NCBI GenBank assembly: GCA_964016885.1
Contig: OZ024757.1
Location: 35,712,001 to 35,776,000, forward strand
Direction of reading: 5' to 3'
Source of the DNA: Eledone cirrhosa
Lineage: Eukaryota
DNA: 64,000 nucleotides
The position numbers and the translations under genes were made by a program. The number at the start of each line of letters is the position of its first letter. Positions within the stretch are counted from its first letter, which is position 1. Of this stretch, positions 16,001 through 62,600 are shown one piece after another. The notes below the pieces were generated by a model. That model was not told where the DNA came from, did not search any database, and was given only the letters and a program-made list of their open reading frames with translations.

Positions 16001-16929
16001 AGATGAAATGAGAGAGAGAGAGCGAGATGAAATGAGAGAGAGAGAGAGAGATGAAACGAGAGAGTGAGAGCTAGAGGAAACGAGAGAGAGAGGAAACGAG
16101 AGAGAGGATATGAGAGAGAGGAAACGAGAGTAGAGAGCGAGATGAAACAGGAGAGAGAGAGCGAGATGAAACAGGAGAGAGAGAGCGAGATGAAACAGGA
16201 GAGAGAGAGCGAGATGAAACGAGAGGGAGAGAGAGATGAAACGAGAGAGCGAGAGAGAGTTAGAGGGAGATGAAACGACAGAGAGAGAGACAGATGAAAC
16301 GAGGGAGATAGAGATGAAACGAGAGAGAGAGATGAAACGAGTGAGAGGAAGAGAGAGATGGAACGAGAGAGAGGAAGAGAGAGATGGAACGAGAGAGAGG
16401 AAGACAGAGATGAAACGAGAGAGACAGAGCGAGATGAAACGAGAGAGAGGAAGAGAGTTAACGCGAGATGAAACGAGAGAGAGAGAGCGAGGTGAAACGA
16501 GAGAGAGGAAGAGAGAGAGCGCGAAATGAAACGAGAGAGAGAGAGAGCGCGAGATGAAAGTCTGTCATGTAATGTTATGGACATATCTGCCCTTGGGGCT
16601 AATAATTGTCATGTAATGTTATGGACATCTCTGCCCCTGTGGCTAATAATTATGTAATGTAATGTTATGGACATCTCTGCCCCTGTGGCTAATAATTCTG
16701 ACATGTAATGTTATGGACATCTCTGCCCCTGTGGCTAATAATTCTGACATGTAATGTTATGGACATCTCTGCCCCTCTGGCTAATAATTCTGACATGTAA
16801 TGTTATGGACATCTCTGTCCCTGTGGCTAATAATTCTGACATGTAATGTTATGGACATCTCTGCCCCTGTGGCTAATAATTCTGACATGTAATGTTATGG
16901 ACATCTCTGCCCCTGTGGCTAATAATTCT
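7014..16929 (-). repeat. Hierarchical composite satellite, block 2 (reverse, GA-rich)
   Basis: Reverse complement of the block 1 architecture; 46-bp arrays at about 8045-8370, 9133-9502, 10990-11267, 12539-12992, 13555-13924, 15385-15706 and 16560-16929. Confidence 0.95.
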
Positions 16930-19900
16930 GATTTATTAGCCACAGGGGCAGAGATGTCCATAACATTACATGTCAGAATTATTAGCCAGAGGGGCAGAGA
17001 TGTCCATAACATTACATGTCAGAATTATTAGCCACAGGGGCGGAGATGTCCATAACATTACATGACATAATTATTAGCCACAGGGGCAGAGATGTCCATA
17101 ACATTACATGACAGAATTATTAGCCACAGGGGCAGAGACGTCCATAACATTACATGACAATTATTAGCCCCAAGGGCAGATATGTCCATAACATTACATG
17201 ACAGAGTTTCATCTCGCGCTCTCTCTCGTTTCATCTCGCGCTCTCTCTCTTCCTCTCTCTCGTTTCATCTCGCTCTCTCTCTCTCTCTATTCATCTCTGT
17301 CTTCCTCTCTCGTTTCATCTCTATCTCCCTCGTTTCATCTGTCTCTTCCTCTCTCGTTTCATCTCTCCCTCCCTCTCGTTTCATCTCGCTCTCTCTCTCC
17401 TGTTTCATCTCGCTCTCTCTCTCCTGTTTCATCTCGCTCTCTACTCTCGTTTCCTCTCTCTCGTTTCCTCTCTCTCTCGTTTCCTCTCTTTCTCGTTTCC
17501 TCTCTGTCTCGTTCCATCCCACTCTCTCTCTCTCTCATTACATCTCGCTCTCTCTTTCTCGTTTCATCTCGCTCTCTCTGTCTCGTTCCATCTCGCTCTC
17601 ACTCTCTCGTTTCATCTCGCTCTCTCGTTTCATATCTATCTCCCTCGTTTCATCTGTCTCTCTCTCTGTCGTTTCATCTCCCTCTATCTCTCTCTCGCTC
17701 TCTCGTTTCATCTCTCCCTCCCTCTCGTTTCATCTCGCTCTCTCTCTCCTGTTTTATCTCGCTCTCTCTCTCTCCTGTTTCATCTCGCTCTCTACTCTCG
17801 TTTCCTCTCTCTCGTTTCCTCTGTCTCGTTTCCTCTCTCTCTCGTTTCCTCACTCTCTCGTTTCATCTCGCTCTCTCTGTCTCGTTCCATCTCGCTCTCA
17901 CTCTCTCGTTTCATCTCGCTCTCTCTGTCTCTCATTTCCTCTCGATCTCTCTGTCTCGTTTCATCCCGCTTTCTCTGTCTCGTTTCATCTCGCTCTCTCT
18001 CTCTCTCATTTCATCTCGCTCTCTCTCTCTCATTTCATCTCGCTATCTCTCTCTCGTTTCATCTCACCCTCACTCTCTCATTTCATCTCGCTCTCTCTCT
18101 CTCGTTTCATCTCGCGCTCTCTCTCTTCCTCTCTCTCTTTTCATCTCGCTCTCTCTCTCTCTTTTCATCTCGCGCTCTCTCTCTTCCTCTCTCTCGTTTC
18201 ATCTCGCTCTCTCTCTCTCTCATTTCATCTCGCGCTCTCTCTCTTCCTCTCTCTCGTTTCATCTCGCTCTCTCTCTCTCTCGTTTCATATCTGTCTTCCT
18301 CTCTCTCGTTCCATCTCTCTATTCCTCTCACTCTCGTTTCATCTAGCTATCACTCTCTCGTTTCATCTCCCTCTATCTCTCTCTCGCTCTCTCGTTTCAT
18401 CTCTCCCTCCCTCTCGTTTCATCTCGCTCTCTCTCTCCGGTTTCATCTCGCTCTCTCTCTCTCCTGTTTCATCTTGCTCTCTACTCTCGTTTCCTCTCTC
18501 TCGTTTCCTCTCTCTCGTTTCCTCTCCCTCTCGTTTCCTCTCTCTCTCGTTTCCTCTCTCTCTCGTTTCATCTAGCTCTGACTCTCTCGTTTCATCTCAA
18601 TCTCTCTCTCTCTCATTTCATCTCTGTCTTCCTCTCTCTCGTTCCATCTCTCTCTTCCTCTCTCTCGTTTCATCTCTCTCTCTCGTTTCATCTTGCTCTC
18701 TCTCTCTCTCGTTCCATCTCTCTCTTCCTCTCTCTCGTTCCATCTCTCTCTTCCTCTCTCTCGTTTCATCTCTCTCTTCCTCTCTCTCGTTTCATCTCTA
18801 TCTCCCTCGTTTCATCTGTCTCTCTCTCTGTCGTTTCATCTCCCTCCATCTCTCTCTCGCTCTCTCGTTTCATCTCTCTCTCCCTCTCGTTTCATCTCGC
18901 TCTCTCTCTCTCCTGTTTCATCTCGCTCTCTCTCTCCTGTTTCATCTCGCTCTCTACTCTCGTTTCCTCTCTCTCGTTTCGTCTCTCTCGTTTCCTCTCT
19001 CTCTCGTTTCATCTAGCTCTCCCACTCTCGTTTCATCTCGCTCTCTCTGTCTCGTTCCATCTCGCTCTCACTCTCTCGTTTCATCTCGCTCTCTCTCTCT
19101 CATTTCATCTCGCTCTCTCTCTCTCATTTCATCTCGCTCTCTCTCTCTCGTTTCATCTCGCTCTCTCTGTCTCGTTTCATCTCGCTCTCGCTCTCTCTGT
19201 CTCGTTTCATCCCGCTCTCTCTGTCTCGTTTCATCTTGCTCTCTCTCTCTCATTTCATCTCGCTCTCTCTCTCTCTCATTTCATCTCGCTCTCTCTCTCT
19301 CTCTCGTTTCATCTCGCTCTCACTCTCTCATTTCATCTCGCTCTCTCTCGTTTGATTTCGCTCTCACTCACTCTTCCTCTCTCTCTCTTGTTTCAACACT
19401 CTAATCCCTCACTTGTTTCATCTCTCTCTAATACCTCACTTGTTTCATCTCTCTCAGAATTATTAGCCACAGGGGCAGAGATGTCCATAACATTACATGT
19501 CAGAATTATTAGCCACAGGGACAGAGATGTCCATAACATTACATGACAGATTTATTAGCCACAGGGGCAGAGATGACCGTAACATTACATGACAGATTTA
19601 TTAGCCACAGGGGCAGAGATTCCATAACATTACATGTCAGAATTATTAGCCACAGGGGCAGAGATGTCCATAACATTACATGACAGAATTATTAGCCACA
19701 GGGGCAGAGTTGTCCATAACATTACATGACAGAATTATTAGCCACAGGGGCAGAGATGTCCATGACAGAGTTTCATCTCGCGCTCTCTCTCTTCCTCTCT
19801 CTCGTTTCATCTCGCTCTCTCTCTCGTTTCATCTCGCTCTCTCTCTCTCGTTTCACCTCTGTCTTCCTCTCTCTCGTTTCATCTCTCTCTTCCTCTCTCT

Positions 19901-22448
19901 CGTTCTATCTCTCTCTTCCTCTCTCTCGTTTCATATCTCTCTCTCGTTTCATCTCTATATCCCTCGTTTCATCTGTCTCTTTCTCTGTCGTTTCATTTCC
20001 CTCTATCTCTCTCTCGCTCTCTCGTTTCATCTCTCGCTCCCTCTCGTTTCATCTCGCTCTCTCTCTCCTGTTTCATCTCGCTCTCTCACTCCTGTTTCAT
20101 CTCGCTCTCTACTCTTGTTTCCACTCTCTCGTTTCCTCTCTTTCTCGTTTCATCTCTCTCTCGTTTCATCTCTCTATGTCTCATTTCATCTCGCTCTCTC
20201 TCTCTCTCATTTCATCTCGTTCTCTCTCTCTCTCATTTCATCTCGCTCTCACTCTCTCGTTTCATCTCGCCCTCTCTCTCTTACTCTCTCTCGTTTCATC
20301 TCGCGCTCTCTCTCTTCCTCTCTCTCGTTTCATCTCGCTCTCTCTCTCTCTCTCTCGTTTCATCTTGCGCTCTCTCTCTTCCTCTCTCTCGTTTCATCTC
20401 GATCTCTCTCTCTCTCTCGTTTCATCTCTGTCTTCCTCTCTCTCGTTCCATCTCTCTCTTCCTCTCTCTCGTTCCATCTCTCTCTTCCTCTCTCTCGTTT
20501 AATCTCTCTCTCTCGTTTCATCTTGCTCTGTCTCTCTCTCGTTTCATCTCTGTCTTCCTCTCTCTCGTTCCATCTCTCTCTTCCTCTCTCTCGTTCCATC
20601 TCTCTCTTCCTCTCTCTCGTTTCATCTCTATCTCCCTCGTTTCATCTGTCTCTCTCTCTGTCGTTTCATCTCCCTCTATCTCTCTCCCGCTCTCTCGTTT
20701 CATCTCTCTCTCCCTCTCGTTTCATCTCGCTATCTCTCTCCTGTTTCATCTCGCTCTCTCTCTCCTGTTTCATCTCGGTCTCTACTCTCGTTTCCTCTCT
20801 CTCGTTTCGTCTCTCTCGTTTCCTCTCTCTCTCGTTTCCTCTCTCTCTCGTTTCCTCTCTCTCTCGTTTCATCTAGCTCTCCCACTCTCGTTTCATCTCG
20901 CTCTCTCTGTCTCGTTCCATCTCGCTCTCACTCTCTCGTTTCATCTCGCTCTCTCTCTCTCATTTCATCTCGCTCTCTCTCTCTCATTTCATCCCGCTCT
21001 CTCTCTCTCGTTTCATCTCGCTCTCTCTGTCTCGTTTCATCTCGCTCTCGCTCTCTCTGTTTCGTTTCATCCCGCTCTCTCTGTCTCGTTTCATCTCGCT
21101 CTCTCTCTCTCATTTCATCTCGCTCTCTCTCTCTCATTTCATCTCGCCCTCTCTCTCTCTCTCTCTCGTTCCATCTCGCTCTCACTCTCTCGTTTCATCT
21201 CGCTCTCTCTCTCTCATTTCATCTCGCTCTCTCTCTCTCATTTCATCTCGCTCTCTCTCTCTCGTTTCATCTCGCTCTCTCTGTCTTGTTTCATCTCGCT
21301 CTCTCTCTCTCATTTCATCTCGCTCTCTCTCGTTTGATCTCGCTCTCACTCTCTCTTCCTCTCTCTTGTTTCAACACTCTAATCCCTCACTTGTTTCATC
21401 TCTCTCTAATCCCTCACTTGTTTCATCTCTCTCAGAATTATTAGCCACAGGGGCAGAGATGTCCATAACATTACATGTCAGAATTATTAGCCAGAGGGGC
21501 AGAGATGTCCATAACATTACATGTCAGAATTATTAGCCACAGGAGCAGAGATGTCCATAACATTACATGTCAGAATTATTAGCCACAGGGACAGAGATGT
21601 CCATAACATTACATGTCAGAATTATTAGCCACAGGGGCAGAGATGTCCATAACATTACATGACAGATTTATTAGCCACAGGGGCAGAGATGTCCGTAACA
21701 TTACATGACAGATTTATTAGCCACAGGGGCAGAGATTCCATAACATTACATGTCAGAATTATTAGCCACAGGGGCAGAGATGTCCATAACATTACATGAC
21801 AGAATTATTAGCCACAGGGGCAGAGTTGTCCATAACATTACATGACAGAATTATTAGCCACAGGGGCAGAGATGTCCATGACAGAGTTTCATCTCGCGCT
21901 CTCTCTCTTCCTCTCTCTCGTTTCATCTCGCTCTCTCTCTCGTTTCATCTCGCTCTCTCTCTCTCGTTTCACCTCTGTCTTCCTCTCTCTCGTTTCATCT
22001 CTCTCTTCCTCTCTCTCGTTCTATCTCTCTCTTCCTCTCTCTCGTTTCATATCTCTCTCTCGTTTCATCTCTATATCCCTCGTTTCATCTGTCTCTCTCT
22101 CTGTCGTTTCATTTCCCTCTATCTCTCTCTCGCTCTCTCGTTTCATCTCTCGCTCCCTCTCGTTTCATCTCGCTCTCTCTCTCCTGTTTCATCTCGCTCT
22201 CTCACTCCTGTTTCATCTCGCTCTCTACTCTTGTTTCCACTCTCTCGTTTCCTCTCTTTCTCGTTTCATCTCTCTCTCGTTTCATCTCTCTATGTCTCAT
22301 TTCATCTCGCTCTCTCTCTCTCTCATTTCATCTCGTTCTCTCTCTCTCTCATTTCATCTCGCTCTCACTCTCTCGTTTCATCTCGCCCTCTCTCTCTTAC
22401 TCTCTCTCGTTTCATCTCGCGCTCTCTCTCTTCCTCTCTCTCGTTTCA

Positions 22449-22485
<37 letters not shown>

Positions 22486-25400
22486 TCATCTTGCGCTCTC
22501 TCTCTTCCTCTCTCTCGTTTCATCTCGATCTCTCTCTCTCGCGTTTCATCTCTGTCTTCCTCTCTCTCGTTCCATCTCTCTCTTCCTCTCTCTCGTTCCA
22601 TCTCTCTCTTCCTCTCTCTCGTTTAATCTCTCTCTCTCGTTTCATCTTGCTCTGTCTCTCTCTCGTTTCATCTCTGTCTTCCTCTCTCTCGTTCCATCTC
22701 TCTCTTCCTCTCTCTCGTTCCATCTCTCTCTTCCTCTCTCTCGTTTCATCTCTATCTCCCTCGTTTCATCTGTCTCTCTCTCTGTCGTTTCATCTCCCTC
22801 TATCTCTCTCCCGCTCTCTCGTTTCATCTCTCTCTCCCTCTCGTTTCATCTCGCTATCTCTCTCCTGTTTCATCTCGCTCTCTCTCTCCTGTTTCATCTC
22901 GCTCTCTACTCTCGTTTCCTCTCTCTCGTTTCGTCTCTCTCGTTTCCTCTCTCTCTCGTTTCCTCTCTCTCTCGTTTCCTCTCTCTCTCGTTTCATCTAG
23001 CTCTCCCACTCTCGTTTCATCTCGCTCTCTCTGTCTCGTTCCATCTCGCTCTCACTCTCTCGTTTCATCTCGCTCTCTCACTCTCGTTTCATCTCACACT
23101 CTCTCTCTCGTTTCATCTCGCTCTCTCTCTCTCTCTCTCTCTCGCTCTCTCTCTCTCTCGTTTCATCTCGCTCTCACTCTCTCGTTTCATCTCGCTCTAA
23201 CTCTCTCATTTCATCTCGCTCTCCCTGTCTCGTTTCATCTCGCTCTCACTCTCTCATTTCATCTCACTCTCTTTCTCTCATTTCATCTCGCTCTCTCTCT
23301 CTCATTTCATCACGCTCTCTCTCTCTCTCTCTCGTTTCATCTCACTCTCACTCTCTCATTTCATCTCGCTCTCTCTCTCTCGTTTCATCTCGCGCTCTCT
23401 CACTTCCTCTCTCTTCCTCTCTCTCGTTTCATCTCGCTCTCTCTCTCTCTCTCTCTCGTTTCATCTTGCGCTCTCTGTCTTCCTCTCTCTCTTTTCATCT
23501 CTCTCTTCCTCTCTCTCGTTCCATCTCTCTCTTCCTCTCTCTCGTTTAATCTCTCTCTCTCGTTTCATCTTGCTCTCTCTCTCTCTCTCTCGTTTCATCT
23601 CTGTCTTCCTCTCTCTCGTTCCATCTCTCTCTTCCTCTCTCTCGTTCCATCTCTCTCTTCCTCTCTCTCGTTTCATCTCTATCTCCCTCGTTTCATCTGT
23701 CTCTCTCTCTGTCGTTTCATCTCCCTCTATCTCTCTCTCGCTCTCTCGTTTCATCTCTCTGCCCCTCTCGTTTCATCTCGCTATCTCTCTCCTGTTTCAT
23801 CTCGCTCTCTCTCTCCTGTTTCATCTCGCTCTCTCCTCTCGTTTCCTCTCTCTCGTTTCGTCTCTCTCGTTTCCTCTCTCTCTTGTTTCCTCTCTCTCTC
23901 GTTTCATCTAGCTCTCCCACTCTCGTTTCATCTCGCTCTCTCTGTCTCGTTCCATCTCGCTCTCACTCTCTCGTTTCATCTCGCTCTCTCTCTCTCTCAT
24001 TTCATCTCGCTCTCTCTCTCTCATTTCATCCCGCTCTCTCTCTCTCGTTTCATCTCGCTCTCTCTGTCTCGTTTCATCTCGCTCTCGCTCTCTCTGTCTC
24101 GTTTCATCCCGCTCTCTCTGTCTCGTTTCATCTCGCTCTCTCTCTCTCTCATTTCATCTCGCTCTCTCTCTCTCATTTCATCTCGCTCTCTCTCTCTCTC
24201 TCGTTCCATCTCGCTCTCACTCTCTCGTTTCATCTCGCTCTCTCTCTCTCATTTCATCTCGCTCTCTCTCTCTCTCATTTCATCTCGCTCTCTCTCTCTC
24301 GTTTCATCTCGCTCTCTCTGTTTCGTTTCATCTCGCTCTCGCTCTCTCTGTCTCGTTTCATCCCGCTCTCTCTGTCTTGTTTCATCTCGCTCTCTCTCTC
24401 TCTCATTTCATCTCGCTCTCTCTCTCTCGTTTGATCTCGCTCTCACTCTCTCTTCCTCTCTCTTGTTTCAACACTCTAATCCCTCACTTGTTTCATCTCT
24501 CTCTAATCCCTCACTTGTTTCATCTCTCTCAGAATTATTAGCCACAGGGGCAGAGATGTCCATAACATTACATGTCAGAATTATTAGCCACAGGGGCAGA
24601 GATGTCCATAACATTACATGACAGATTTATTAGCCACAGGGGCACAGATGTCCATAACATTACATGTCAGATTTATTAGCCACAGGGGCAGAGATGTCCA
24701 TAACATTACATGACAGAATTATTAGCCACAGGGGCAGAGATGTCCATAACATTACATGACAGAATTATTAGCCACAGGGGCAGAGATGTCCATAACATTA
24801 CATGACAGAATTATTAGCCACAGGGGCAGAGATATCCATAACATTACATGACAATTATTAGCCCCAAGGGCAGATATGTCCATAACATTACATGACAGAC
24901 TTTCATCTCGCGCTCTCTCTCTTCCTCTCTCTCGTTTCATCTCGCTCTCTCTCTCTCTCATTTCATCTCGCGCTCTCTCTCTTCCTCTCTCTCGTTTCAT
25001 CTCGCTCTCTCTCTCTCTCTCGTTTCATATCTGTCTTCCTCTCTCTCGTTCCATCTCTCTATTCCTCTCTCTCTCGTTTCATCTAGCTGTCACTCTCTCG
25101 TTTCATCTCCCTCTATCTCTCTCTCGCTCTCTCGTTTCATCTCTCTCGTTTCCTCTCTCTCGTTTCCTCTCTCTCTCGTTTCCTCTCTCTCGTTTCATCT
25201 AGCTCTCACTCTCTCGTTTCATCTCGCTCTCTCTGACTCGTCCCATCTCGATCTCACTCTCTCGTTTCATCTCGCTCTCTCTCTCTCATTTCATCTTGCT
25301 CTCTCTCTCTCATTTCATCTCGATCTCTCTGTCTCGTTTCATCCCGCTCTCTCTGTCTCGTTTCATCTCGCTCTCTCTCTCTCATTTCATCTCGCTCTCT

Positions 25401-27563
25401 CTCTCTCATTTCATCTCGCTCTCTCTCTCTCTCTCGTTTCATCTCACTCTCACTCTCTCATTTCATCTCGCTCTCTCTCTCTCGTTTCATCTCGCGCTCT
25501 CTCTCTTCCTCTCTCTCGTTTCATCTCGCTCTCTCTCTCTCGTTTCATCTTGCGCTCTCTCTCTCTTCCTCTCTCTCGTTTCATCTCTCTCTCTCTCTCT
25601 CTCTCGTTTCATCTCTGGCTTCCTCTCTCTCGTTCCATCTCTCTCTTCCTCTCTCTCGTTCCATCTCTCTCTTCCTCTCTCTCGTTTCATCTCTCTCTCT
25701 CGTTTCATCTTGCTCTCTCTCTCTCTCGTTTCATCTCTGACTTCCTCTCTCTCGTTCCATCTCTCTCTTCCTCTCTCTCGTTTCATCTCTCTCTCTCGTT
25801 TCATCTCTATCTCCCTCGTTTCATCTGTCTCTCTCTCTGTCGTTTCATCTCCCTCGATCTCTCTCTCGCTCTCTCGTTTCATCTCTCTCTCCCTCTCGTT
25901 TCATCTCGCTCTCTCTCTCCTGTTTCATCTCGCTCTCTCTCTCCTGTTTCATCTCGCTCTCTACTCTCGTTTCCTCTCTCTCGTTTCGTCTCTCTCGTTT
26001 CCTCTCTCTCTCGTTTCATCTAGCTCTCCCACTCTCGTTTCATCTCGCTCTCTCTGTCTCGTTCCATCTCGCTCTCACTCTCTCGTTTCATCTCGCTCTC
26101 TCTCTCTCATTTCATCTCGCTCTCTCTCTCTCATTTCATCTAGCTCTCTCTCTCTCGTTTCATCTCACTCTCTCTGTCTCGTTTCAACTCGCTCTCGCTC
26201 TCTCTGTCTCGTTTCATCCCGCTCTCTCTGTCTCGTTTCATCTCGCTCTCTCTCTCTCATTTCATCTCGCTCTCTCTCTCTCATTTCATCTCGCTCTCTC
26301 TCTCTCTCTCGTTTCATCTCGCTCTCACTCTCTCATTTCATCTCGCTCTCTCTCGTTTGATTTCGCTCTCAGTCTCTCTTCCTCTCTCTCTCTTGTTTCA
26401 ACACTCTAATCCCTCACTTGTTTCATCTCTCTCTAATCCCTCACTTGTTTCATCTCTCTCAGAATTATTAGCCACAGGGGCACAGATGTCCATAACATTA
26501 CATGTCAGAATTATTAGCCACAGGGGCAGAGATGTCCATAACATTACATGTCAGAATTATTAGCCACAGGGGCAGAGATGTCCATAACATTACATGACAA
26601 ATTTATTAGCCACAGGGGCAGAGATGTCCGTAACATTACATGACAGATTTATTAGCCACAGGGGCAGAGATTCCATAACATTACATGTCAGAATTATTAG
26701 CCACAGGGGCAGAGATGTCCATAACATTACATGACAGAATTATTAGCCACAGGGGCAGAGTTGTCCATAACATTACATGACAGAATTATTAGCCACAGGG
26801 GCAGATATGTCCATGACAGAGTTTCATCTCGCGCTCTCTCTCTTCCTCTCTCTCGTTTCATCTCGCTCTCTCTCTCGTTTCATCTCGCTCTCTCTCTCTC
26901 TCGTTTCACCTCTGTCTTCCTCTCTCTCGTTTCATCTCTCTCTTGTTCTATCTCTCTCTTCCTCTCTCTCGTTTCATCTCTCTCCCTCGTTTCATCTCTA
27001 TATCCCTCGTTTCATCTGTCTCTCTCTCTGTCGTTTCATTTCCCTCTATCTCTCTCTCGCTCTCTCGTTTCATCTCTCTCTCCCTCTCGTTTCATCTCGC
27101 TCTCTCTCTCCTGTTTCATCTCGCTCTCTCACTCCTGTTTCATCTCGCTCTCTACTCTTGTTTCCACTCTCTCGTTTCCTCTCTTTCTCGTTTCATCTCT
27201 CTCTCGTTTCATCTCTCTCTCGTTTCATCTCTCTATGTCTCATTTCATCTCGCTCTCTCTCTCTTTCATTTCATCTCGTTCTCTCTCTCTCTCATTTCAT
27301 CTCGCTCTCTCTGTCTCGTGTCATCTCGCTCTCTCTCTCTCTCGTTTCATCTCGCTCTCACTCTCTCGTTTCATCTCGCTCTCACTCTCTCATTTCATCT
27401 CGCTCTCCCTGTCTCGTTTCATCTCGCTCTCACTCTCTCATTTCATCTCACTCTCTTTCTCTCATTTCATCTCGCTCTCTCTCTCTTGTTTCAACACTCT
27501 AATCCCTCACTTGTTTCATCTCTCTCTAATCCCTCACTTGTTTCATCTCTCTCTTGTTTCAAT

Positions 27564-27606
<43 letters not shown>

Positions 27607-27985
27607 ATCCCCTCTCTCTTTCTCTCCCCTCTCTCTCTTGTTTCATCCCTCACCCTCTTGTTTCATCCCCCTCTCTCTTGTTTCATCCCCCTCTCTCCCT
27701 CTCTCTCTCTTACCCTCTCTTCCTCTCTCTTCCTCTCTCTCTCTCTCTTCCTCTCTCTCTCTCTTTCACACTATCTCCAACTCGTTTCATCACTCTCTCC
27801 CCTCTCTCCCCTCACCCTCTTGTTTCAACTCTCTCCTCGTTTCAACTCTCTCTCTCTCCTCTCTTGTTTCAACTCTCTCACCTCTCGTTTCAACTCTCTC
27901 TCTCTCTCGTTCCAACTCTCTCTCTCTCTCACCTCTCGTTACAACTCTCTCTCTCTCACCTCTCGTTACAACTCTCTCTCTCTGT
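16930..27985 (+). repeat. Hierarchical composite satellite, block 3 (forward)
   Basis: 46-bp arrays at about 16930-17205, 19456-19768, 21434-21885, 24531-24899 and 26461-26820; ends in the same divergent edge zone as block 1 (27555-27985). Confidence 0.95.
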
Positions 27986-28189
27986 GTCTCCAATGTGTAA
28001 TAAACCGTGACTCATATATATATACAGAAGAATGTACATAAAAACACATACATACACGCATGTGTATATATATATACATACATGTGTCTCTCTCTCTCCC
28101 TATATATATGTACATATGTGTAAATATGTACATACATATTAGTGTATATATATTGCTATCTATATGCATATTTGTATAATTATACTGTA

Positions 28190-28360
28190 TGGTGAATTGG
28201 CAGTATCGGTAGAGGGTCTGACGCCATGCTTTCCAGCATAGTTACGTCCCTTTACGATCCGAGGTCAACTTTGCCTTTCATCCTTACGGGGTCGATAAAA
28301 TAAAGTACCAGTAATGTACTGGTTAATTACTGACCTTGTGCCTAAAATAGAAACAATTAT
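28190..28360 (+). mobile_element. tRNA-derived SINE fragment (duplicate of 5432-5602)
   Basis: Same sequence as 5432-5602. Confidence 0.75.
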
Positions 28361-28914
28361 TAGTTCAAAGAGAAACCACCATCATAGAGAAACCACCATC
28401 CTACCTGAAATATTATGTTATCATATTAAATATTTCTTATACTGTCATGTTTTTTCTTTAAAACGATTGCATCTCAATAAAGTGAAGAAAACTATTATAT
28501 ACTGTTGTTATATCATTATACTTTAGTTTTAACTTATTATTTCTATGTGTATAAATATAATGTATGTAAGTGTGTTTGAAAATATATAATAATAATATGC
28601 ATGTTTGAAGCAGGGTTCAACGGAAATATCTACACCGGTAACTTAATTAGTGTTACACCTTAGGCATAAACTATTTGGCATTCTTTGAAGGAGGTACTAG
28701 GTTTGTCGCTGTCTTAAATGGAGTATACACGCGCACACGATGCATATATATAACTTGTTTTTCTCTGTACAAAGAGATTGACATCATTTCTTAAATCATT
28801 ATTTAGGGTTTTACAACAAAACATATTGTATGTGTAATTATACAAATTGAATTTAAGTATTTATTTTAAAATTTTACATATTCTTTAGTAGTATATATAT
28901 ATATATATATATAT

Positions 28915-29815
28915 ATTCATTTGTGATGCCATGCATTGTATTGTACACTTCGACATATGGATTACATTCATGCAACACCTCTCTTATCATAGCCATTTTT
29001 TGTCGTGAGCAGTCATTATTTGTTGGTACTAGGGCGGTGGATTGGCAGTATCGGTAGAGCGCCAGACACCATGCTTTACAGCATAGGGTTATGGCCCTTT
29101 ACGTTCTGGGTTCAAATCCCTCCAAGGTTGACTTTGTTTTCATCCTTATGAGGTCGATAGAATAAAGTACCAGTAATTGCTGGCCTTGTGCCAGAAACAA
29201 TTATTTGGTTGTACTTCCAATCTGTGCTACATACCTTCGTTCCCATCAATAATATATAACTGGCCATATTGTGGTGTATTTTCTGCAGGTTACAGAGATG
29301 GGGGTGTAGTGATATGTTTGAACCTGAATATGAAAGCTATACGGGCCTCTGCCGGGTGGTAACACCAAATGAAGTGAAATAAATGGAGTTTTAATTGCAG
29401 ATGTTTCTGTGAAATCAACTGCTTCCTGGCCTCTTTCAAAGAGATTTCTCAGTCTCTCAGGGTATATTTGCAATGGTGGCAACACAACCTTTCCTTTATT
29501 ACAACAGTTACAATTTTCATTTCTAAATTTCAAAGCTCCACAGTGATCACACGAAACATTCATATCACTAATATGAAATTCTTCTACATTTCCATTAATA
29601 TTAATTGTTGGCCAATTTCTCTTACGACGCTCATTATCCATTCTTCTCTGTCTGAATGTTTTCCATTCTGTTGTTTATTATGTAATTAAATAGCTCTGTA
29701 CAATACATAGAGCACTCTTCTTTTCTTTACCTTTTCTATGGAAATACAAGAAAAAACATATAAATATATATATATATGTATATACATAAACAAGACTGTT
29801 ATTGCTCCAACCAGT
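28915..29815 (-). pseudogene. Helitron Rep-helicase N-terminal fragment, copy B
   Basis: ORF 29246-29641 is nearly identical to 6490-6927; same SINE insertion; about 30-bp deletion near 29668 between ATTCT microhomologies. Confidence 0.85.
29032..29199 (+). mobile_element. tRNA-derived SINE in Helitron copy B
   Basis: Same element and flanking direct repeats as 6276-6443. Confidence 0.85.
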
Positions 29816-46343: not shown

Positions 46344-46374
<31 letters not shown>

Positions 46375-47941: not shown

Positions 47942-47983
<42 letters not shown>

Positions 47984-49570: not shown

Positions 49571-49719
49571 TTAACAGTGATAGATATTCTGTCTAAAGGA
49601 GGGGCGTACAACAGGCGGCCCGCGGGCCACAATCGAACCCACCTGACCAGTCAGAGTGGCCCGCAATGACTCTTGTAGGCTTATTTAGAATTTTTTCCAT
49701 ACCCGTAATACTTCTGTTA

Positions 49720-51524: not shown

Positions 51525-54049
51525 TTACATCTGTCTGTGAACTCTTGAAAAAGCAACATACAATTGTCCAGGGTTAAATACTTGCTCAGGGAGGAACAGA
51601 CCCACTTTATCATGTATTTGACCATGGTTCTTGTTGATTGTCATGGCATATGACAGTCTTAATGGAAACTGGGGTCTTTCCAAAGTAAAAAGGATGTTGG
51701 CACCACTGGGGGCTAACTTCAGTCTTGGGATCAAAACACACCTGCCCATCAAAGGACCATAGATATGAGAAGCTTTGATAAAATGTTTATGCAGTTCTAC
51801 TACTTCTAATCTTGTGCCATTACATAATCTGTTCTGGATTGAAATATTCCATAGAAGCATTATTATTGATCCTGCTTTTAATTGGAGTTTGTGAGGCGGC
51901 ATCCCAGAAGGTGTAAGCAAGTTCATTTAGCTTGAACCAGGCAGCAAGGGTCCCTGCATTTCTACCACAACCTGAGCATTGCCTCTTTGAAAGTAAACTC
52001 TGTTTGTTCTCCAGGTGTGTGGCTAGGCTGTATACTGTAAGTGATGTACCATGAAGCTTAAATTCGGAGAGACACGACACTGCTTCTGGCTGAGACACAT
52101 ACCTGCAACAAAGATAGGTTCTTATTTCATCATGGTTGTGTTGGTTCTGAGCCTCATTAGGTAATGCATTATTCGTTACTTCTATAGATGTACAATCATG
52201 CCCCATGTAACATATTTAAAGAGGTACTTGACACTTTTTACAGAAGCGCAAACTTCAACATTAATATGTGCACAATATTTCTTAAGCAAAAAGGCATTAA
52301 ATGGCACAACATTCCTGTTATCTACTGAATGTCATCCAATTTACACTGCAGTTCCTGTCTTGCACCTCCTGTACTCTGGGTATCCATTTAGGTTCAATAA
52401 TGTTTCCCTTCTGTAGGTTTTTGGATAGTTCTTTTGGAAAAATCCATTTTGTATAAATGGGGGAAAAGGGTTTCCAGAACCACATGGCCCATGGATCATA
52501 AACTTTTAAATCTGCTCATGTAGTACTTGATCATCTTCCAATGCAGGTATTTCTGCTGACACGATTCTGTCAATGTCTTCTCTGTTTCTTATCTTGTCTT
52601 CATTTCTTAAGGCTCAGTGTTATCATCTGTTTAGATAATTCATTAAACCATTATACTCATCCACTCACAATTGGGCTTGATTGTTCCTCAAATATTGAAG
52701 CCTGCATCCCTCTACTTTCATATAGGCTTCCACTAAATACTGCTAAAATAATTTACCTGCCCTATATATCGCACTAAATCCTCCTCTATATGCTATACTG
52801 TATATGTAATACTCCTGCATTGTCAGTCTATTGCAAACACAGGTCCTGCATTCCTCTCCATGTCACTATGCCACCAAAATTCACCATTATGGGTCGGTCA
52901 TGAGGTCCAAGTGGCATGAATTATGTGATATTTTCTGAGGAGGATGGTCTTTAGGAAAGATGATAATATCTCTTTGTACAGGTGGTCTGCCCTCAATCCC
53001 CCACAAAACAACAGCTATCATTACTAGTTGGTAAATTATAGCAGCTCATATCTGATCCTCTTCTAAATCTTAATTCACAGTTCTGTACACGACAATTTTC
53101 TCTTCTTGCACTTTGCTGTTTGATGCCATTCATTGTATTGTACAATTCGACATATGGATTACATTCATGCAACACCTCTCTTATCATAGCCATTTTTTGT
53201 GGTGAGCACTCATTATTTGTTGGTACTAGGGCGGTGGATTGGCAGTATCGGTAGAGCGTCAGACACCATGCTTTGCAGCATAGGGTTATGGCCCTTTACG
53301 TTCTGGGTTCAAATCCCTCCAAGGTTGACTTTGTTTTCATCCTTATGAGGTCGATAGAATAAAGTACCAGTAATTGCTGGCCTTGTGCCGGAAACAATTA
53401 TTTGGTCGTACTTCCAATCTGTGCTACACACCTTCGTTCCCATCAATAATATATAACTGGCCATATTGTGGTGTATTTTCTGCAGGTTACAGAGGTGGGG
53501 GTGTAGTGATATGTTTGACCCTGAATATGAAAGCTATACGGGCCTCTGCCGGGTGGTAACACCAAATGAAGTGAAATAAATGTAGTTTTAATTGCAGATG
53601 TTTCTGTGAAATCAACTGCTTCCTGGCCTCTTTCAAAGAGATTTCTCAGTCTCTCGGGGTATATTTGCAATGGTGGCAACACTACCTTTCCTTTATTACA
53701 ACAGTTACAATTTTCATTTCTAAATTTCAAAGCTCCACAGTGATCACACGAAACATTCATATCACTAATATGAAATTCTTCTACATTTCCATTAATATTA
53801 ATTGTTGGCCAATTTCTCTTACGACGCTCATTATCCATTCTTCTCTGTCTGAATGTTTTCCATTCTAAGTCTATTTGCATGGAATAATTATATTCTGTTG
53901 TTTATTATGTAATTAAATAGCTCTGTACAATACATAGAGCATTCTTCTTTTCTTTACCTTTTCTATGGAAATACAAGAACAAACATATATATATATATAT
54001 GTATATATGTGTGTATATACATAAACAAGACTGTTATTACTCCAACCAG
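51525..54049 (-). pseudogene. Internally deleted, decayed Helitron Rep-helicase, copy D (longest)
   Basis: In order on the minus strand: Cys cluster and GPYSFHIQGQTYH (53443-53880); LHECNPYV..YNLPTSND (52993-53193); GKLF*QYLVEAYMKVEGCRLQYLRNNQ (about 52680-52760); IDRIVSAEIP..KFMIHGPCG (about 52480-52575); DNRNVVPFNAFLLKKYCAHINVEVCASVKSVKYLFKY (about 52210-52322); GHD..DEIRTYLCCRYVSQPEA (51820-52206); Pif1-type C-terminus PSGMPPHKLQLK..LCNGTRL..QFPLRLSYAMTINK..GQLYVAFSRV (51525-51926). Multiple stops and frameshifts. Confidence 0.93.
53229..53396 (+). mobile_element. tRNA-derived SINE in Helitron copy D
   Basis: Same element and insertion site as in copies A and B; flanking repeats at 53212-53227 and 53397-53412. 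Confidence 0.85.
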
Positions 54050-57000
54050 ATGAAACTCTGTCATGTAATGTTATGGACATCTCTGCCCCTGTGGCTAATA
54101 ATTCTGTCATGTAATGTTATGGACATCTCTGCCCCTGTGGCTAATAATTCTGACATGTAATGTTATGGACATCGCTGCCCCTGTGGCTAATAATTCTGAC
54201 ATGTAATGTTATGGACATCTCTGCCCTGTGGCTAATAATTCTGAGAGAGATGAAACACGTGAGGGATTAGAGAGAGATAAAACAAGTGAGGGATTAGAGT
54301 GTTGAAACAAGAGAGAGAGAGGAAGAGAGAGAGAGAGCGAGATGAAATGAGACAGGGAGAGCGAGATGAAACGCGAGAGTGAGAGAAGCGAGATGAAACG
54401 AGAGAGTGAGAGCGAGATGAAACGAGAGAGAGAGAGAGCGAGATGAAACGAGACAGAGAGAGCGAGATTTAATGAGAGAGAGAGAGAGCGGGATGGAACG
54501 AGACAGAGATGAAACGAGAGAGAGAGGAAACGAGAGAGAGGAAACGAGAGTAGAGAGCGAGATGAAACAGGAGAGAGAGAGCGAGATGAAACGAGAGGGA
54601 GAGAGAGATGAAACGAGGGAGATAGAGATGAAACGAGAGAGAGGAAGAGAGAGATGGAACGAGCGAGAGGAAGAGAGAGATGGAACGAGAGAGAGGAAGA
54701 CAGAGATGAAACGAGAGAGAGCGAGATGAAACGAGAGAGCGAGATGAAACGAGATAGAGAGAGAGCGAGATGAAACGAGAGAGAGGAAGAGAGAGAGCGC
54801 GAGATGAAACTCTGTCATGTAACGTTATGGACATATCTGCCCTTGGGGCTATAATTGTCATGTAATGTTATGGACATCTCTGCCCCTGTGGCTAATAATT
54901 CTTTCATGTAATGTTATGGACATCTCGGCCCCTGTGGCTAATAATTCTGACATGTAATGTTATGGACATCTCTGCCCCTGTGGCTAATAATTCTGACATG
55001 TAATGTTATGGACATCTCTGCCCCTGTGGCTAATAATTCTGACATGTAATGTTATGGACATCTCTGCCCTGTGGCTAATAATTCTGAGAGAGATGAAACA
55101 CGTGAGGGATTAGAGAGAGATAAAACAAGTGAGGGATTAGAGTGTTGAAACAAGAGAGAGAGAGGAAGAGAGAGAGAGAGCGAGATGAAATGAGACAGGG
55201 AGAGCGAGATGAAACGTGAGAGTGAGAGAAGCGAGATGAAACGAGAGAGTGAGAGCGAGATGAAACAAGAGAGAGAGAGCGAGATGAAACGAGACAGAGA
55301 TAGCGAGATTTAATGAGAGAGAGAGAGAGCGGGATGGAACGAGACAGAGAGGAAACGAGAGAGAGAGGAAACGAGAGAGAGGAAACGAGAGTAGAGAGCG
55401 AGATGAAACAGGAGAGAGAGAGCGAGATGAAACGAGAGGGAGAGAGAGATGAAATGAGGGAGATAGAGATGAAACGAGAGAGAGGAAGAGAGAGATGGAA
55501 CGAGAGAGAGGAAGACAGAGATGAAACGAGAGAGAGAGAGAGATGAAACGAGAGAGAGAGAGAGCGCGAGATGAAACGACAGAGAGAGAGACAGATGAAA
55601 GGAGGGAGATAGAGATGAAACGAGAGAGAGGAAGAGAGAGATGGAACGAGCGAGAGGAAGAGAGAGATGGAACGAGAGAGAGGAAGACAGAGATGAAACG
55701 AGAGAGAGCGAGATGAAACGAGAGAGAGAGAGCGCGAGATGAAACTCTGTCATGTAACGTTATGGACATATCTGCCCTTGGGGCTATAATTGTCATGTAA
55801 TGTTATGGACATCTCTGCCCCTGTGGCTAATAATTCTGTCATGTAATGTTATGGACATCTCTGCCCCTGTGGCTAATAATTCTTTCATGTAATGTTATGG
55901 ACATCTCGGCCCCTGTGGCTAATAATTCTGACATGTAATGTTATGGACATCTCTGCCCCTGTGGCTAATAATTCTGACATGTAATGTTATGGACATCTCT
56001 GCCCTGTGTCTAATAATTCTGACATGTAATGTTATGGACATCTCTGCCCCTGTGGCTAATAATTCTGTCATGTAATGTTATGGACATCTCTGCCCCTGTG
56101 GCTAATAATTCTGACATGTAATGTTATGGACATCTCTGCCCCTGTGGCTAATAATTCTGCCATGTAATGTTATGGACATCTCTGCCCCTGTGGCTAATAA
56201 TTCTGAGAGAGATGAAACAAGTGAGGGATTAGAGATAGATAAAACAAGTGAGGGATTAGAGTGTTGAAACAAGAGAGAGAGAGAGCGAGATGAAATGAGA
56301 CAGGGAGAGCGAGATGAAACGCGCGAGTGAGAGAAGCGAGATGAAACGAGAGAGTGAGAGCGAGATGAAACGAGAGAGAGAGAGAGCGAGATGAAACGAG
56401 ACAGAGAGAGCGAGATGTAATGAGAGAGAGAGAGAGCGGGATGGAACGAGACAGAGAGGAAACGAGAGAGAGGAAACGAGAGTAGAGAGCGAGATGAAAC
56501 GAGAGGGAGAGAGAGATGAAACGAGAGAGCGAGATAGAGATGAAACGAGAGAGAGGAAGAGAGAGATGGAACGAGAGAGAGGAAGACAGAGATGAAACGA
56601 GAGAGAGAGAGAGAGCGAGATGAAACGAGAGAGAGAGAGCGCGAGATGAAACGAGAGAGAGAGAGCGCGAGATGAAACGAGAGAGAGAGAGCGCGAGATG
56701 AAACGACAGAGAGAGAGACAGATGAAAGGAGGGAGATAGAGATGAAACGAGAGAGAGGAAGATAGAGATGGAACGAGAGAGAGCAAGAGAGAGATGGAAC
56801 GAGAGAGAGGAAGACAGAGATGAAACGAGAGAGAGAGAGAGCGAGATGAAACTCTGTCATGTAATGTTATGGACATATCTGCCCTTGGGGTTAATAATTG
56901 TCATGTAATGTTATGGACATCTCTGCCCCTGTGGCTAATAATTCTGTCATGTAATGTTATGGACATCTCTGCCCCTGTGGCTAATAATTCTGAGAGAGAT

Positions 57001-59627
57001 GAAACAAGTGAGGGATTAGAGAGAGATAAAACAAGTGAGGGATTAGAGTGTTGAAACAAGAGAGAGAGAGAGCGAGATGAAATGAGACAGGGAGAGCGAG
57101 ATGAAACGCGAGAGTGAGAGAAGCGAGATGAAACGAGAGAGTGAGAGCGAGATGAATCGAGAGAGAGAGAGAGCGAGATGAAACGAGACAGAGAGAGCGA
57201 GATGTAATGAGAGAGAGAGAGAGCGGGATGGAACGAGACAGAGAGGAAACGAGAGAGAGAGGAAACGAGAGAGAGGAAACGAGAGTAGAGAGCGAGATGA
57301 AACGGGAGAGCGAGATAGAGATGAAACGAGAGAGAGGAAGAGAGAGATGGAACGAGAGAGAGGAAGACAGAGATGAAACGAGAGAGAGCGAGATGAAACG
57401 AGAGAGCGAGATGAAACGAGAGAGAGAGAGAGCGAGATGAAACGAGAGAGAGGGAAAGAGAGAGCGCGAGATGAAACTCTGTCATGTAATGTTATGGACA
57501 TATCTGCCCTTGGGGCTAATAATTGTCATGTAATGTTATGGACATCTCTGCCCCTGTGGCTAATAATTCTGTCATGTAATGTTATGGACATCTCTGCCCC
57601 TGTGGCTAATAATTCTGTCATGTAATGTTATGGACATCTCTGCCCCTGTGGCTAATAATTCTGCCATGTAATGTTATGGACATCTCTGCCCTGTGGCTAA
57701 TAATTCTGACATGTAATGTTATGGACATCTCTGCCCCTGTGGCTAATAATTCTGAGAGAGATGAAACAAGTGAGAGATTAGAGAGAGATAAAACAAGTGA
57801 GGGATTAGAGTGTTGAAACAAGAGAGAGAGAGGAAGAGAGAGAAAGAGCGAAATGAAATGAGACAGGGAGAGCGAGATGAAACGCGAGAGTGAGAGAAGC
57901 GAGATGAAACGAGAGAGTGAGAGCGAGATCAAACGAGAGAGAGAGAGAGCGAGATGAAACGAGACAGAGAGGAAACGAGAGAGAGGAAACGAGAGTAGAG
58001 AGCGAGATGAAACAGGAGAGAGAGAGCGAGATGAAACGAGAGGGAGAGAGAGATGAAACGAGAGAGCGAGAGAGAGATGAAAGGAGGGAGATAGAGATGA
58101 AACGAGAGAGAGGAAGAGAGAGATGGAACGAGAGAGAGGAAGAGTGAGATGGAACGAGAGAGAGGAAGACAGAGATGAAACGAGAGAGAGAGAGAGCGAG
58201 ATGAAATAAGGGAGAGAGAGCGCAAGATGAAACGAGAGAGAGAGAGCGCGAGATGAAACGACAGAGAGAGAGACAGATGAAAGGAGTGAGATAGAGATGA
58301 AACGAGAGAGAGGAAGAGAGAGATGGAACGAGAGAGAGGAAGACAGAGATGAAACGAGAGAGAGAGAGAGCGAGAGGAAACGAGAGAGAGAGAGCACAAG
58401 ATGAAACGAGAGAGAGAGAGCGCGAGATGAAACTGTCATGTAATGTTATTGCCATATCTGCCCCTGTGGCTAATAATTGTCATGTAATGTTATGGTCATC
58501 TCTGCCCCTGCGGCTAATAATTCTGACATGTAATGTTATGGTCATCTCTGCCCCTGTGGCTAATAATTCTGAGAGAGATGAAACAAGTGAGGGATTAGAG
58601 TGTTGAAACAAGAGAGAGAGAGCGAGATGAAATGAGAGAGTGTGAGCGAGATGAAACGAGACAGGGGAGCGAGATGAAACGAGAGAGTGAGAGCGAGATG
58701 AAACGAGAGAGAGAGAGAGCGAGATGAAACGGGAGGGAGAGAGAGATGAAACGAGAGAGAGGAAACGAGAGTAGAGAGCGAGATGAAACAGGAGAGAGAG
58801 AGAGCGAGATGAAACAGGAGAGAGAGAGCGAGATGAAACGAGAGGGAGAGAGAGATGAAACGAGAGAGCGAGAGAGAGATGAAACGAGGGAGATAGAGAT
58901 GAAACGAGAGAGAGGAAGAGAGAGATGGAACGAGAGAGAGGAAGACAGAGATGGAACGAGAGAGAGGAAGACAGAGATGAAACGAGAGAGAGAGAGAGCG
59001 AGATGAAACAGGAGAGAGAGAGCGAGATGAAACGAGAGGGAGAGAGAGATGAAACGAGAGAGCGAGAGAGAGATGAAACAAGGGAGATAGAGATGAAACG
59101 AGAGAGAGGAAGAGAGAGATGGAACGAGAGAGAGGAAGAGAGAGATGGAACGAGAGAGAGGAAGACAGAGAAGAAACGAGAGAGAGAGCGAGATGAAACG
59201 AGAGAGAGAGAGCGCAAGATGAAATGAGAGAGAGAGAGCGCGAGATGAAACGACAGAGAGAGAGACAGATGAAAGGAGGGAGATAGAGATGAAACGAGAG
59301 AGAGGAAGAGAGAGATGGAACGAGAGAGAGGAAGAGAGAGATGGAACGAGAGAGAGGAAGACAGAGATGAAACGAGAGAGAGAGCGAGATGAAACAGGAG
59401 AGAGAGAGCGCAAGATGAAACGAGAGAGAGCGCGAGATGAAACTCTGTCATGTAATGTTATTGACATATCTGCCCCTGTGGCTAATAATTGTCATGTAAT
59501 GTTATGGTCATCTCTGCCCCTGTGGCTAATAATTCTGTCATGTAATGTTATGGACATCTCTGCCCTTGTGGCTAATAATTCTGACATGTAATGTTATGGA
59601 CATCTCTGCCCCTGTGGCTAATAAATC
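54049..59627 (-). repeat. Hierarchical composite satellite, block 4 (reverse, shorter modules)
   Basis: 46-bp arrays at about 54056-54242, 54810-55085, 55745-56204, 56851-56991, 57476-57752, 58433-58570 and 59443-59627. Confidence 0.95.
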
Positions 59628-62600
59628 AGAATTATTAGCCACAGGGGCAGAGATGTCCATAACATTACATGTCAGAATTATTAGCCACAGGGGCTGAGAT
59701 GTCCATAACATTACATGTCAGAATTATTAGCCACAGGGGCAGAGATGTCCATAACATTACATGTCAGAATTATTAGCCACAGGGGCAGAGATGTCCATAA
59801 CATTACATGTCAGAATTATTAGCCAGAGGGGCAGAGATGTCCATAACATTACATGTCAGAATTATTAGCCACAGGGGCAGAGATGTCCATAACATTACAT
59901 GACAGATTTATTAGCCACAGGGGCAGAGATGTCCATAACATTACATGTCAGAATTATTAGCCACAGGGGCAGAGATGTCCATAACATTACATGACATAAT
60001 TATTAGCCACAGGGGCAGAGATGTCCATAACATTACATGACAGAATTATTAGCCACAGGGGCAGAGATGTCCATAACATTACATGACAATTATTAGCCCC
60101 AAGGGCAGATATGTCCATAACATTACATGACAGACTTTCATCTCGCGCTCTCTCTCTCTCTCGTTTCATCTCGCGCTCTCTCTCTTCCACTCTCTCGTTT
60201 CATCTCGGTCTCTCTCTCGTTTCATCTCGCGTTCACTCTCTTTCTCTCTCTCGTTTCATCTCGCTCTCTCTCTCTCTCGTTTCATCTCTGTCTTCCTCTC
60301 TCTCGTTCCATCTCTCTCTTCCTCTCTCTCGTTCCATCTCTCTCTTCCTCTCTCTCGTTTCCTCTCTCTCGTATCCTCTCTCTCGTTTCCTCTCTCTCTC
60401 GTTTCCTCTCTCTCTCGTTTCCTCTAGCTCTCACTCTCTCGTTTCATCTCGCTCTCTCTCTCTCATTTCATCTCGCTCTCTCTCTCTCGTTTCATCTTGC
60501 TCTCTCTGTCTCGTTTCATTTCGCTCTCTCTCTCTCTCATTTCATCTCGCTCTCTCTATCTCGTTTCATCCCGCTCGCTCTGTCTCGTTTCATCTCGCTC
60601 TCTCTCTCTCATTTCATCTCGCTCTCTCTCTCTCATTTCATCTCGCTCTCTCTCTCTCGTTTCATCTCGCTCCCACTCTCTCATTTCATCTCGCTCTCTC
60701 TCTCTCGTTTGATCTCGCTCTCACTCTCTCTTCCTCCCTCTCTCTTGTTTCAACACTCTAATCCCTCACTTGTTTCATCTCTCTCAGATTTATTAGCCAC
60801 AGGGCAGAGATCTCCATAACATTACATGTCAGAATTATTAGCCACAGGGGCAGAGATGTCCATAACACTACATGACATAATTATTAGCCACAGGGGCAGA
60901 GATGTCCATAACATTACATGACAGAATTATTAGCCACAGGGGCAGAGATGTACATAACATTACATGGCAATTATTAGCCCCAAGGGCAGATATGTCCATA
61001 ACATTACATGACAATTATTAGCCCCAAGGGCAGATATGTCCATAACATTACATGACAGACTTTCATCTCGCGCTCTCTCTCTCTCGTTTCATCTCGCCCT
61101 CTCTCTCTTCCTCTCTCTCGTTTCATCTCGCTCTCTCTCTCTCTCGTTTCATCTCGCGCTCTCTCTCTTCCTCTCTCTCGTTTCATCTCGCTCTCTCTCT
61201 CTCTCGTTTCATCTTTGTCTTCCTCTCTCTCGTTCCATTTCTCTCTTCCTCTCTCACTCGTTCCATCTCTCTCTCGTTTCATCTAGCTCTCACTCTCTCG
61301 TTTCATCTCGCTCTCTCGTTTCATCTCTATCTCCCTCGTTTCATCTGTCTCTCTCTCTGTCGTTTCATCTCCCTCTATCTCTCTCTCGCTCTCTCGTTTT
61401 ATCTCTCCCTCCCTCTCGTTTCATCTCGCTCTCTCACTCCTGTTTCATCTCGCTCTCTCTCTCCTGTTTCATCTCGCTCTCTACTCTCGTTCCATCTCTC
61501 TCTCGTTTCATCTAGCTCACACTCTCTCGTTTCATCTCGCTCTCTCTGTCTCGTTCCATCTCGCTCTTTCTGTCTCGTTTCATCTCGCTCTCTCTCTCTC
61601 ATTTCATCTCGCTCACTCTCTCTCTCTCGTTTCATCTCACTCTCACTCTCTCATTTCATCTCGCTCTCTCTCTCTCTCTCGTTTCATCACGCGCTCTCTC
61701 TCTTCCTCTCTCTCTTTTCATCTCTCTCTCTCTCTCTCTCCTTTCATCTCTGTGTTCCTCTCTCTCGTTCCATCTCTCTCTTCCTCTCTCTCGTTCCATC
61801 TCTCTCTTCCTCTCTCTCGTTTCATCTCTCTCTCTCGTTTCATCTCTATCTCCCTCGTTTCATCTGTCTCTCTCTCTGTCGTTTCATCTCCCTCTATCTC
61901 TCTCTCGCTCTCTCGTTTCATCTCTCTCTCCCTCTCGTTTCATCTCGCTCTCTCTCTCCTGTTTCATCTCGCTCTCTCTCTCTCCTGTTTCATCTCGCTC
62001 TCTACTATCGTTTCCTCTCTCTCGTTTCCTCTCTCTCTCGTTTCCTCTCTCTCTCATTTCATGTAGCTCTCACTCTCTCGTTTCATCTCGCTCTCTCACT
62101 CTCATTTCATCTCGCTCTCTCTCTCTCGTTTCATCTCGCTCTCTCTGTCTCGTTTCATCTCGCTCTCTCTCTCTCTCATTTCATCTCGCTCTCTCTGTCT
62201 CGTTTCATCCCGCTCTCTCTGTCTCGTTTCATCTCGCTCTCTCTCTCTCATTTCATCTCACTCTCTCTCTCTCATTTCATCTCGCTCTCTCTCTCTCGTT
62301 TCATCTCGCTCTCACTCTCTCTTCCTCTTTCTCTCTTGTTTCAACACTTTAATCCCTCACTTGTTTCATCTCTCTCTAATCCCTCACTTGTTTCATCTCT
62401 CTCAGAATTATTAGCCACAGGGGCAGAGATGTCCATAACGTTACATGTCAGAATTATTAGCCACAGGGGCAGAGATGTCCATAACATTACATGTCAGAAT
62501 TATTAGCCACAGGGGCAGAGATGTCCATAACATTACATGACAGATTTATTAGCCACAGGGGCAGAGATGTCCATAACATTACATGGCAATTATTAGCCCC

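Follow-up and report, generated by a model that had tools for sequence, protein, structure and literature searches.

A 64,000-nucleotide stretch of the Eledone cirrhosa genome (assembly GCA_964016885.1, contig OZ024757.1, positions 35,712,001 to 35,776,000; hereafter the window, numbered from its first letter) raises the question of how a satellite comes to reverse its strand twice at the same sequence. An array of 46-bp units switches strand at junction J1 (16917..16941, unstranded), which carries a 7-nt asymmetric loop at 16926-16932, and again at junction J2 (59616..59640, unstranded), the reverse complement of J1. A first-pass annotation of this DNA had described the two 25-mers as exact reverse complements, loop included, each at the centre of a multi-kb imperfect palindrome; it had proposed flip/flop forms of one hairpin, with plain inverted duplication as the less exotic option. 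We confirmed the complementarity of the two 25-mers, which lie 42,699 bp apart, as well as their palindromic setting in uninterrupted array, with arms of 9.9 and 11.1 kb at J1 and of 5.6 and at least 4.4 kb at J2. The feature is thus genuine and had been described correctly. Its probable explanation, in our judgement, is a single template-switch junction that was later spread by inverted segmental (block) copying and whose arms were remodelled.

Measured from the loop centre, the reverse-complement identity of J1 and J2 extends for 67 nt towards TTCTGA and for 60 nt towards ATCA, that is, a little over one consensus 46-bp unit in each direction. Around the 7-nt loop, the arms match perfectly over 56 nt at J1 and 58 nt at J2, and each of the two 99-mers folds into a single hairpin (about -55 kcal/mol, z about -20). 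Satellite orientation changes four times in the window, twice across unique DNA and twice directly. Both direct switches (2/2) use the J1/J2 junction, and the loop-diagnostic 11-mer occurs in the window at J1 and J2 only. By approximate enumeration, about 1,080 distinct switch junctions are possible in a 46-bp unit, about 130 of them with at least 2 nt of microhomology, so that two independent switches would rarely coincide. A coincidence of J1 and J2 is therefore unlikely, which implies a common origin or a common mechanism; the single origin proposed in the annotation is supported. The junction 25-mer had no match in the metagenome and viral contigs searched, a 27-nt motif of the satellite unit had none in the metagenome contigs searched, and an Rfam search gave no match at the gathering score.

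The satellite is compound, with a period of about 0.6-3 kb made up of a GA-rich tract, an array of 46-bp units and a 27-bp linker. The tract (0.5-2.6 kb) is degenerate and consists of ordered words of 12-26 bp, and each array holds about 3-11 copies of the unit; the window contains 26 higher-order units and about 180 copies in total (177 by one count). From left to right, an arm at 1-5225 is followed by a unique spacer (X), the arm at 7015-16925, J1, the arm at 16933-27983, a second copy of X and about 24 kb of other repeats, and then by a Helitron remnant, the arm at 54050-59624, J2 and the arm running from 59632 to the window end. The J1 left arm (7015..16925, plus strand), on the TTCTGA side and termed type A, has seven higher-order units. 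The J1 right arm (16933..27983, minus strand), on the ATCA side and termed type B, has five and a degenerate natural outer end. At J2, the left arm (54050..59624, plus strand) is on the type-B side and comprises seven shorter units that form their own clade; the right arm (59632..64000, minus strand) is of type A and leaves the window after three visible units, which are nearest the two innermost J1-left units. At its outer end, the third arm (1..5225, minus strand) matches the J1 right arm, and its inner end lies beyond the window. All non-junction arrays (22/22) terminate at one unit phase, which is that of the junction's TTCTGA side and is where an array meets the purine tract. Whole higher-order units have recently been duplicated in tandem at 19454-23557 (0.3% substitutions) and 60151-63953 (1.5%); the arms therefore grow locally.

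Only outer variants can decide whether the loop turned by itself or together with its arms, because identical inner arms make flip and flop one duplex read from either strand. In the innermost units, substitutions amount to 1.96% between J1 left and J2 right (J1L-J2R, rank 10 of 300 block pairs) and to 3.51% for J1R-J2L (rank 72), compared with 8.25% (rank 274) and 8.31% (rank 277) for the same-side pairs J1L-J2L and J1R-J2R. The second units on the TTCTGA side differ by 1.2-1.4% between J1L and J2R (1.22% for J1L.6-J2R.2), and in the unit tree J1L.7 groups with J2R.3 and J1L.6 with J2R.1/2. Over 4,369 nt, 432 exclusive 20-mers are shared by J1L and J2R, 85 by J1R and J2L, 34 by J1L and J2L, and 17 by J1R and J2R. 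The array-entry base, counted over units that are not independent, is G in all nine scored type-A units, as it is in a tenth that was left out of that count, and C in 11 of 12 type-B units. The loop thus stays with the type-A arm over all 4.4 kb visible, with the other arm coupled weakly. Of the linkage between loop and arms that the annotation had named as favouring simple inverted duplication, the part concerning the TTCTGA-side arm is strongly borne out and the part concerning the other arm weakly. Its option of a junction copied and inverted as a unit is supported by the arm variants. As far as sequence comparison can tell, the core has turned together with its arms and was then remodelled.

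An outer landmark is consistent with such a turn. Directly left of the J2 palindrome lies a Helitron RepHel remnant with its upstream DNA (51525..54049, minus strand), broken and internally deleted. The RepHel itself (51525-53901, minus strand) has a large internal deletion and a SINE-like insertion, and its N-terminal part is also found in X, the spacer that adjoins the J1 palindrome. Both X copies (5225..7018 and 27983..29744, unstranded, 97% identical) carry SINE-like copies and a minus-strand RepHel N-terminal fragment. In all, the N-terminal piece occurs four times, at 6432-6948, 29188-29674 and 31846-32133 and in the remnant at 51525-53901. A tblastn search with 16 long RepHel-like proteins matched 6432-6948, 29188-29662, 31846-32133 and 51531-53901, all on the minus strand, and all six of the query proteins scanned (6/6) have Helitron_like_N and PIF1 domains. 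SINE-like copies lie at 5433-5557, 6281-6421, 28191-28315, 29036-29177 and 53233-53374; we take them to resemble octopus SINEs, although our checks gave no confirmation: protein searches were without hits, a cluster look-up of 6 proteins yielded one name, that of a plant, and literature searches for the SINE motifs brought up nothing relevant. On the outside, both left arms end in abrupt joins, which lie some 80 bp from each other in the same Helitron-upstream sequence and show a microhomology of 4 nt at the J1 left arm and 2 nt at the J2 left arm. Because the Helitron-remnant sequence precedes both palindromes in the same orientation and their cores are opposite, core and arms are turned relative to it. 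The turn may have been a separate insertion, a template switch, or a crossover between arms beyond the visible range, several kb out, the last of which would agree with the annotation's option of recombination between the arms.

The loop contains no foreign sequence. Six of its seven nucleotides carry on the normal unit, and the remaining side is the reverse strand of an ordinary ATCTG unit variant, which 22 of the 172 anchored units show. At the junction, a TTCTG-type and an ATCTG-type unit meet head to head and seamlessly, with a 2-nt overlap. Under the block-copying explanation, it would have arisen once through a microhomology-mediated template switch or fold-back, presumably at the phase where arrays enter the purine tract, a boundary at which replication forks may plausibly stall. 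Further template switches, or ectopic recombination, would then have copied the core and both arms in one block, which came to lie next to the same Helitron remnant in one orientation or the other, its outer joins showing 2-4 nt of microhomology. The arms would have diverged by local tandem duplication and exchange, more so on the B side. By default, we regard the junction as a passively amplified rearrangement scar able to extrude a hairpin or cruciform.

Several observations weigh against this account. The 28-mer values for J1R-J2L (46, 66, 68) are not clearly above those for J1R-J2R (46, 94, 31) or J1L-J1R (41, 69, 79), and J1L.7-J1R.5, at 3.26%, is as close a pair as J1R.5-J2L.7 at 3.51%, in alignments of units of unequal length that are noisy. 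The innermost right array of J1 has a rare variant that is common to the type-A arrays and absent from J2-left. Together with the weak coupling on the B side, this shared variant means that the duplication was not a clean one, and exchange or replacement must therefore be added. Two junctions are in view. The mechanism of origin is deduced from an overlap of 2 nt, and the letters of the junction would equally well result from a snap-back with a loop of 4 nt and a slip of 1 nt. Finally, no assembled contig of sequencing runs X11 and X1 spans the junction, their depth being zero past 16933, although such gaps prove nothing.

The latter gaps could also be read as a sign that J1 and J2 are an assembly or chimeric-read artefact produced by fold-back reads, and palindromes in repeats are a known mode of assembly failure. 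No long read across the arms was found among the reads examined. The arms nevertheless differ in unit number and variants, unlike those of a fold-back read, and the identical junction occurs twice, in different flanks. Raw reads supply further evidence. Four of 18 listed sequencing runs were mapped onto 16834-16955, including X16 and X17, which are two samples of study P7, a different study from that of the best-matching contigs; the library is a biased reduced-representation one, apparently cut at AATT. Loop-specific bases were found in 5 of the 1150 reads placed for X16 and in 2 of 1584 for X17. Read in reverse, the loop and the reference have different bases at three positions (16926, 16929 and 16932). 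The X16 reads have A at 16929 in 5 of 9 covering reads and at 16932 in 5 of 8, with three start places; in X17 the corresponding numbers are 2 of 9 and 2 of 3, with one start place. Given these equal counts, the two A bases probably sit on the same reads, and the cleanest loop-carrying read shows only the two other loop differences from the reference. Ligation cannot make the loop bases, because the loop-diagnostic word lies before the AATT cut site of the library. An artefact is therefore extremely unlikely. An opposite-strand joint from 16837 to 16930 (3 reads) was dropped as support since it spells the ordinary ATCTG unit variant, and for the same reason the depth at 16939-16955 was not taken as junction evidence. 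Junction reads make up 7 of the 2734 placed (0.26%, interval 0.1-0.5%), as against about 1.1% of the units in the window. This would make the junction a minority feature, an indication that is rough because about three quarters of the placed reads continue into unlike sequence. The satellite itself is abundant in two assembled runs, with a summed word depth of up to about 165,000 in X11.

If block copying did not spread the junction, an enzyme may have made the same join more than once. The TTCTGA phase would then be the end of a mobile unit, such as a satellite-carrying non-autonomous Helitron-type element, and a type-A arm would repeatedly be joined to a reverse-strand unit. The A-side arms are indeed closely related and the B-side arms are not, all 22 ordinary arrays end at this phase, and RepHel remnants adjoin both palindromes. 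Helitrons have a 5' TC, a 3' hairpin followed by CTRR and a target between A and T (A/T), and the junction can be parsed accordingly as A/TC or CTGA/T. These termini motifs are, however, low in information, with six AT steps per unit strand, the nearby hairpin has a stem of merely 3 bp, and the join between array and GA tract does not fit A/T. Moreover, two insertions would need the same base of a unit variant with a frequency of 13%, the B-side units have their C entry base in common, and neither a second terminus nor target-site evidence was found in the window. We thus consider recurrent joining unlikely.

Flip/flop isomerism in the strict sense would require a hairpin-ended or cruciform-resolved intermediate, whether from rolling-hairpin replication or from recombination near the tip, that inverts the loop and leaves the arms fixed. 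An imperfect palindrome with an asymmetric loop has the appropriate shape, the two cores have opposite orientations with respect to the Helitron-remnant sequence on their left, the variant common to both innermost J1 arrays suggests some arm exchange, and a separate 89-bp array in the window has two loops in both orientations. The loop is nonetheless found with the type-A arm throughout the visible 4.4 kb, which disagrees with the isomers of parvovirus or poxvirus kind that the annotation had put forward. Outside the satellites, a Pfam scan of 97 open frames (65 aa or longer) revealed no Rep/NS1, resolvase or capsid family, its single match above cut-off being Pif1_2B, and the viral and metagenome contigs lacked the 25-mer. 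We regard such isomers as highly improbable. A viral or Rep-encoding replicon in the window was ruled out by the same scan; Helitron Rep is present only as broken remnants. Selection is given about as little credence, namely that the inversion point might be kept for a role of palindromic satellite domains or loops in (peri)centromeric chromatin. The junction is identical in two copies despite arm differences of 1-8% and is found in other samples, the satellite is abundant in the two assembled runs, and the hypothesis has been stated for Tribolium (PMC13081366). However, homogenised units that diverge by 1-2% would be expected to show an identity of about 126 nt, the blocks of 5-21 kb lie among SINE-like, Helitron and other repeats rather than in homogeneous megabase arrays, and junction reads are just 7 of the 2734 placed. 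The Tribolium authors for their part report no experimental evidence of function (PMC13081366).

The closest likeness among known systems is with Tribolium, whose satellites are described as forming ‘macro-dyad symmetries’ with conserved inversion sites (PMC13081366). In T. freemani, inversion segments are reported to consist of truncated monomers with no extraneous DNA and 9-27-bp loops, and identical copies occur on different chromosomes (PMC12581902); in T. madens, thousands of inversion sites are reported to be 98-99% conserved (PMC13081366). J1 and J2 likewise have multi-kb inverted subarrays with unequal arms in uninterrupted array, and their switches are built from truncated monomers with nothing extraneous in between, around a loop of 7 nt compared with the 9-27 bp described for T. 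freemani. The switch sequence is also identical in separate copies, here in 2/2 direct switches, a small number. In contrast, the Tribolium sites as reported number thousands in megabase (peri)centromeric arrays of major satellites and two sites are seen here, in compound minisatellite/GA-repeat blocks of 10-21 kb amid transposon debris of an unrelated animal. As judged from sequence, the palindromes share the features of macro-dyad symmetry outside the only genus so described; that article states that the pattern is documented in Tribolium only and that its function is unproven (PMC13081366). In two other papers (PMC13277930, PMC13427858), the term macro-dyad occurs solely among the cited references. 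No description of this satellite or of such cephalopod palindromes appeared among the matches listed, with most subscription journals outside their coverage.

In yeast, template switching where short inverted homologies occur is well established as producing such junctions, in inverted amplification (ODIRA; PMC10766183) and in fold-back inverted insertions at breaks (PMC11724301). The present case resembles these in a junction inverted via very short homology, in the microhomology of the outer joins and in a layout that runs forward, inverted and forward again (arm, X, inverted arm, junction, arm, X). It differs in that the J1 inverted arm is nearest J2-right and not its own neighbours, so that the layout is probably not one fresh inverted triplication; in the unit tree, only E0R.4 groups with J1L.2/5. 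Parvovirus termini are flip/flop hairpins. For poxviruses, flip and flop are described as what the two strands of a single imperfect concatemer junction become on refolding (PMC8956199). The likeness to these viruses, an imperfect palindrome with an asymmetric loop whose strands would refold into two complementary hairpins, is geometric only, since no linear replicon, resolvase or Rep was seen in the window and the loop goes with a single arm lineage rather than appearing in both orientations on arms that stay fixed. Satellite-like repeats borne by Helitrons or Helentrons are reported, for example, from Crassostrea gigas (PMC7492417, PMC8268682). They resemble the present case in their dispersed tandem arrays beside Helitron sequence, but no element termini are defined here and the Helitron pieces may be bystanders. 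Conjunctions of satellites and microsatellites are described for T. madens TmSat4, with (AC)n, and for a Penaeus vannamei satellite, with CCTAA (PMC13081366). Complex units alternate with simple-repeat tracts there as here, whereas the unit in the window is a three-part higher-order one, whose GA-rich tract (0.5-2.6 kb) is both ordered and degenerate.

The window contains further repeats with palindromic organisation. At 31090-31890, an 89-bp tandem array has a unit of two hairpins with a common stem of about 23-28 bp; both asymmetric loops keep one orientation to about 31390 and are reversed beyond it. This array is nearer to loop flip/flop than J1/J2, and it lies where the two copies of a tandem duplication meet (29431-31092 and 31911-33775, 96-99.6% identity), the first of which is without about 150 bp. 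Helitron-derived sequence joined to the array at 31887-31947 folds back over about 25-29 bp around a small natural palindrome, a fold-back that resembles templated inverted insertions at breaks. Another repeat family has three palindromic copies with long inverted arms (34411-35952, 45645-47390 and 47454-48502). Their centres are TA-rich or mixed and differ per copy, a short GAAA-loop hairpin motif occurs eight times, and the family is foldback- or MITE-like. Further satellites of 55, 61 and 34 bp lie at 38881-40908, 49719-50952, 41252-42900 and 42418-43800, and the segment 37559-40141 is duplicated at 48501-50952. Two inverted, degenerate fragments (36354-36743 and 44627-44974), which presumably resemble the restriction-like endonuclease domain of non-LTR retrotransposons, gave no Pfam or homolog match.

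A wider reading, doubtful yet conceivable, is that J1/J2 would be conserved throughout the genome as the turning point of a major satellite, in an animal outside the insects, and that the palindrome core spreads as a unit via hairpin-capped or circular intermediates, possibly aided by Helitron RepHel. Macro-dyad symmetry would then be a general mode of satellite propagation, and the 89-bp two-hairpin array a miniature product of the same back-and-forth copying. In its present extent, the finding is a rearrangement junction that occurs twice in DNA rich in repeats. It should be moderately interesting to those who study satellites, and it does not amount to a new replication system. A Tribolium-like case in an unrelated animal with variant-rich arms does provide a direct test of whether inversion sites are kept for function or merely copied along, and the arm variants here point to copying.

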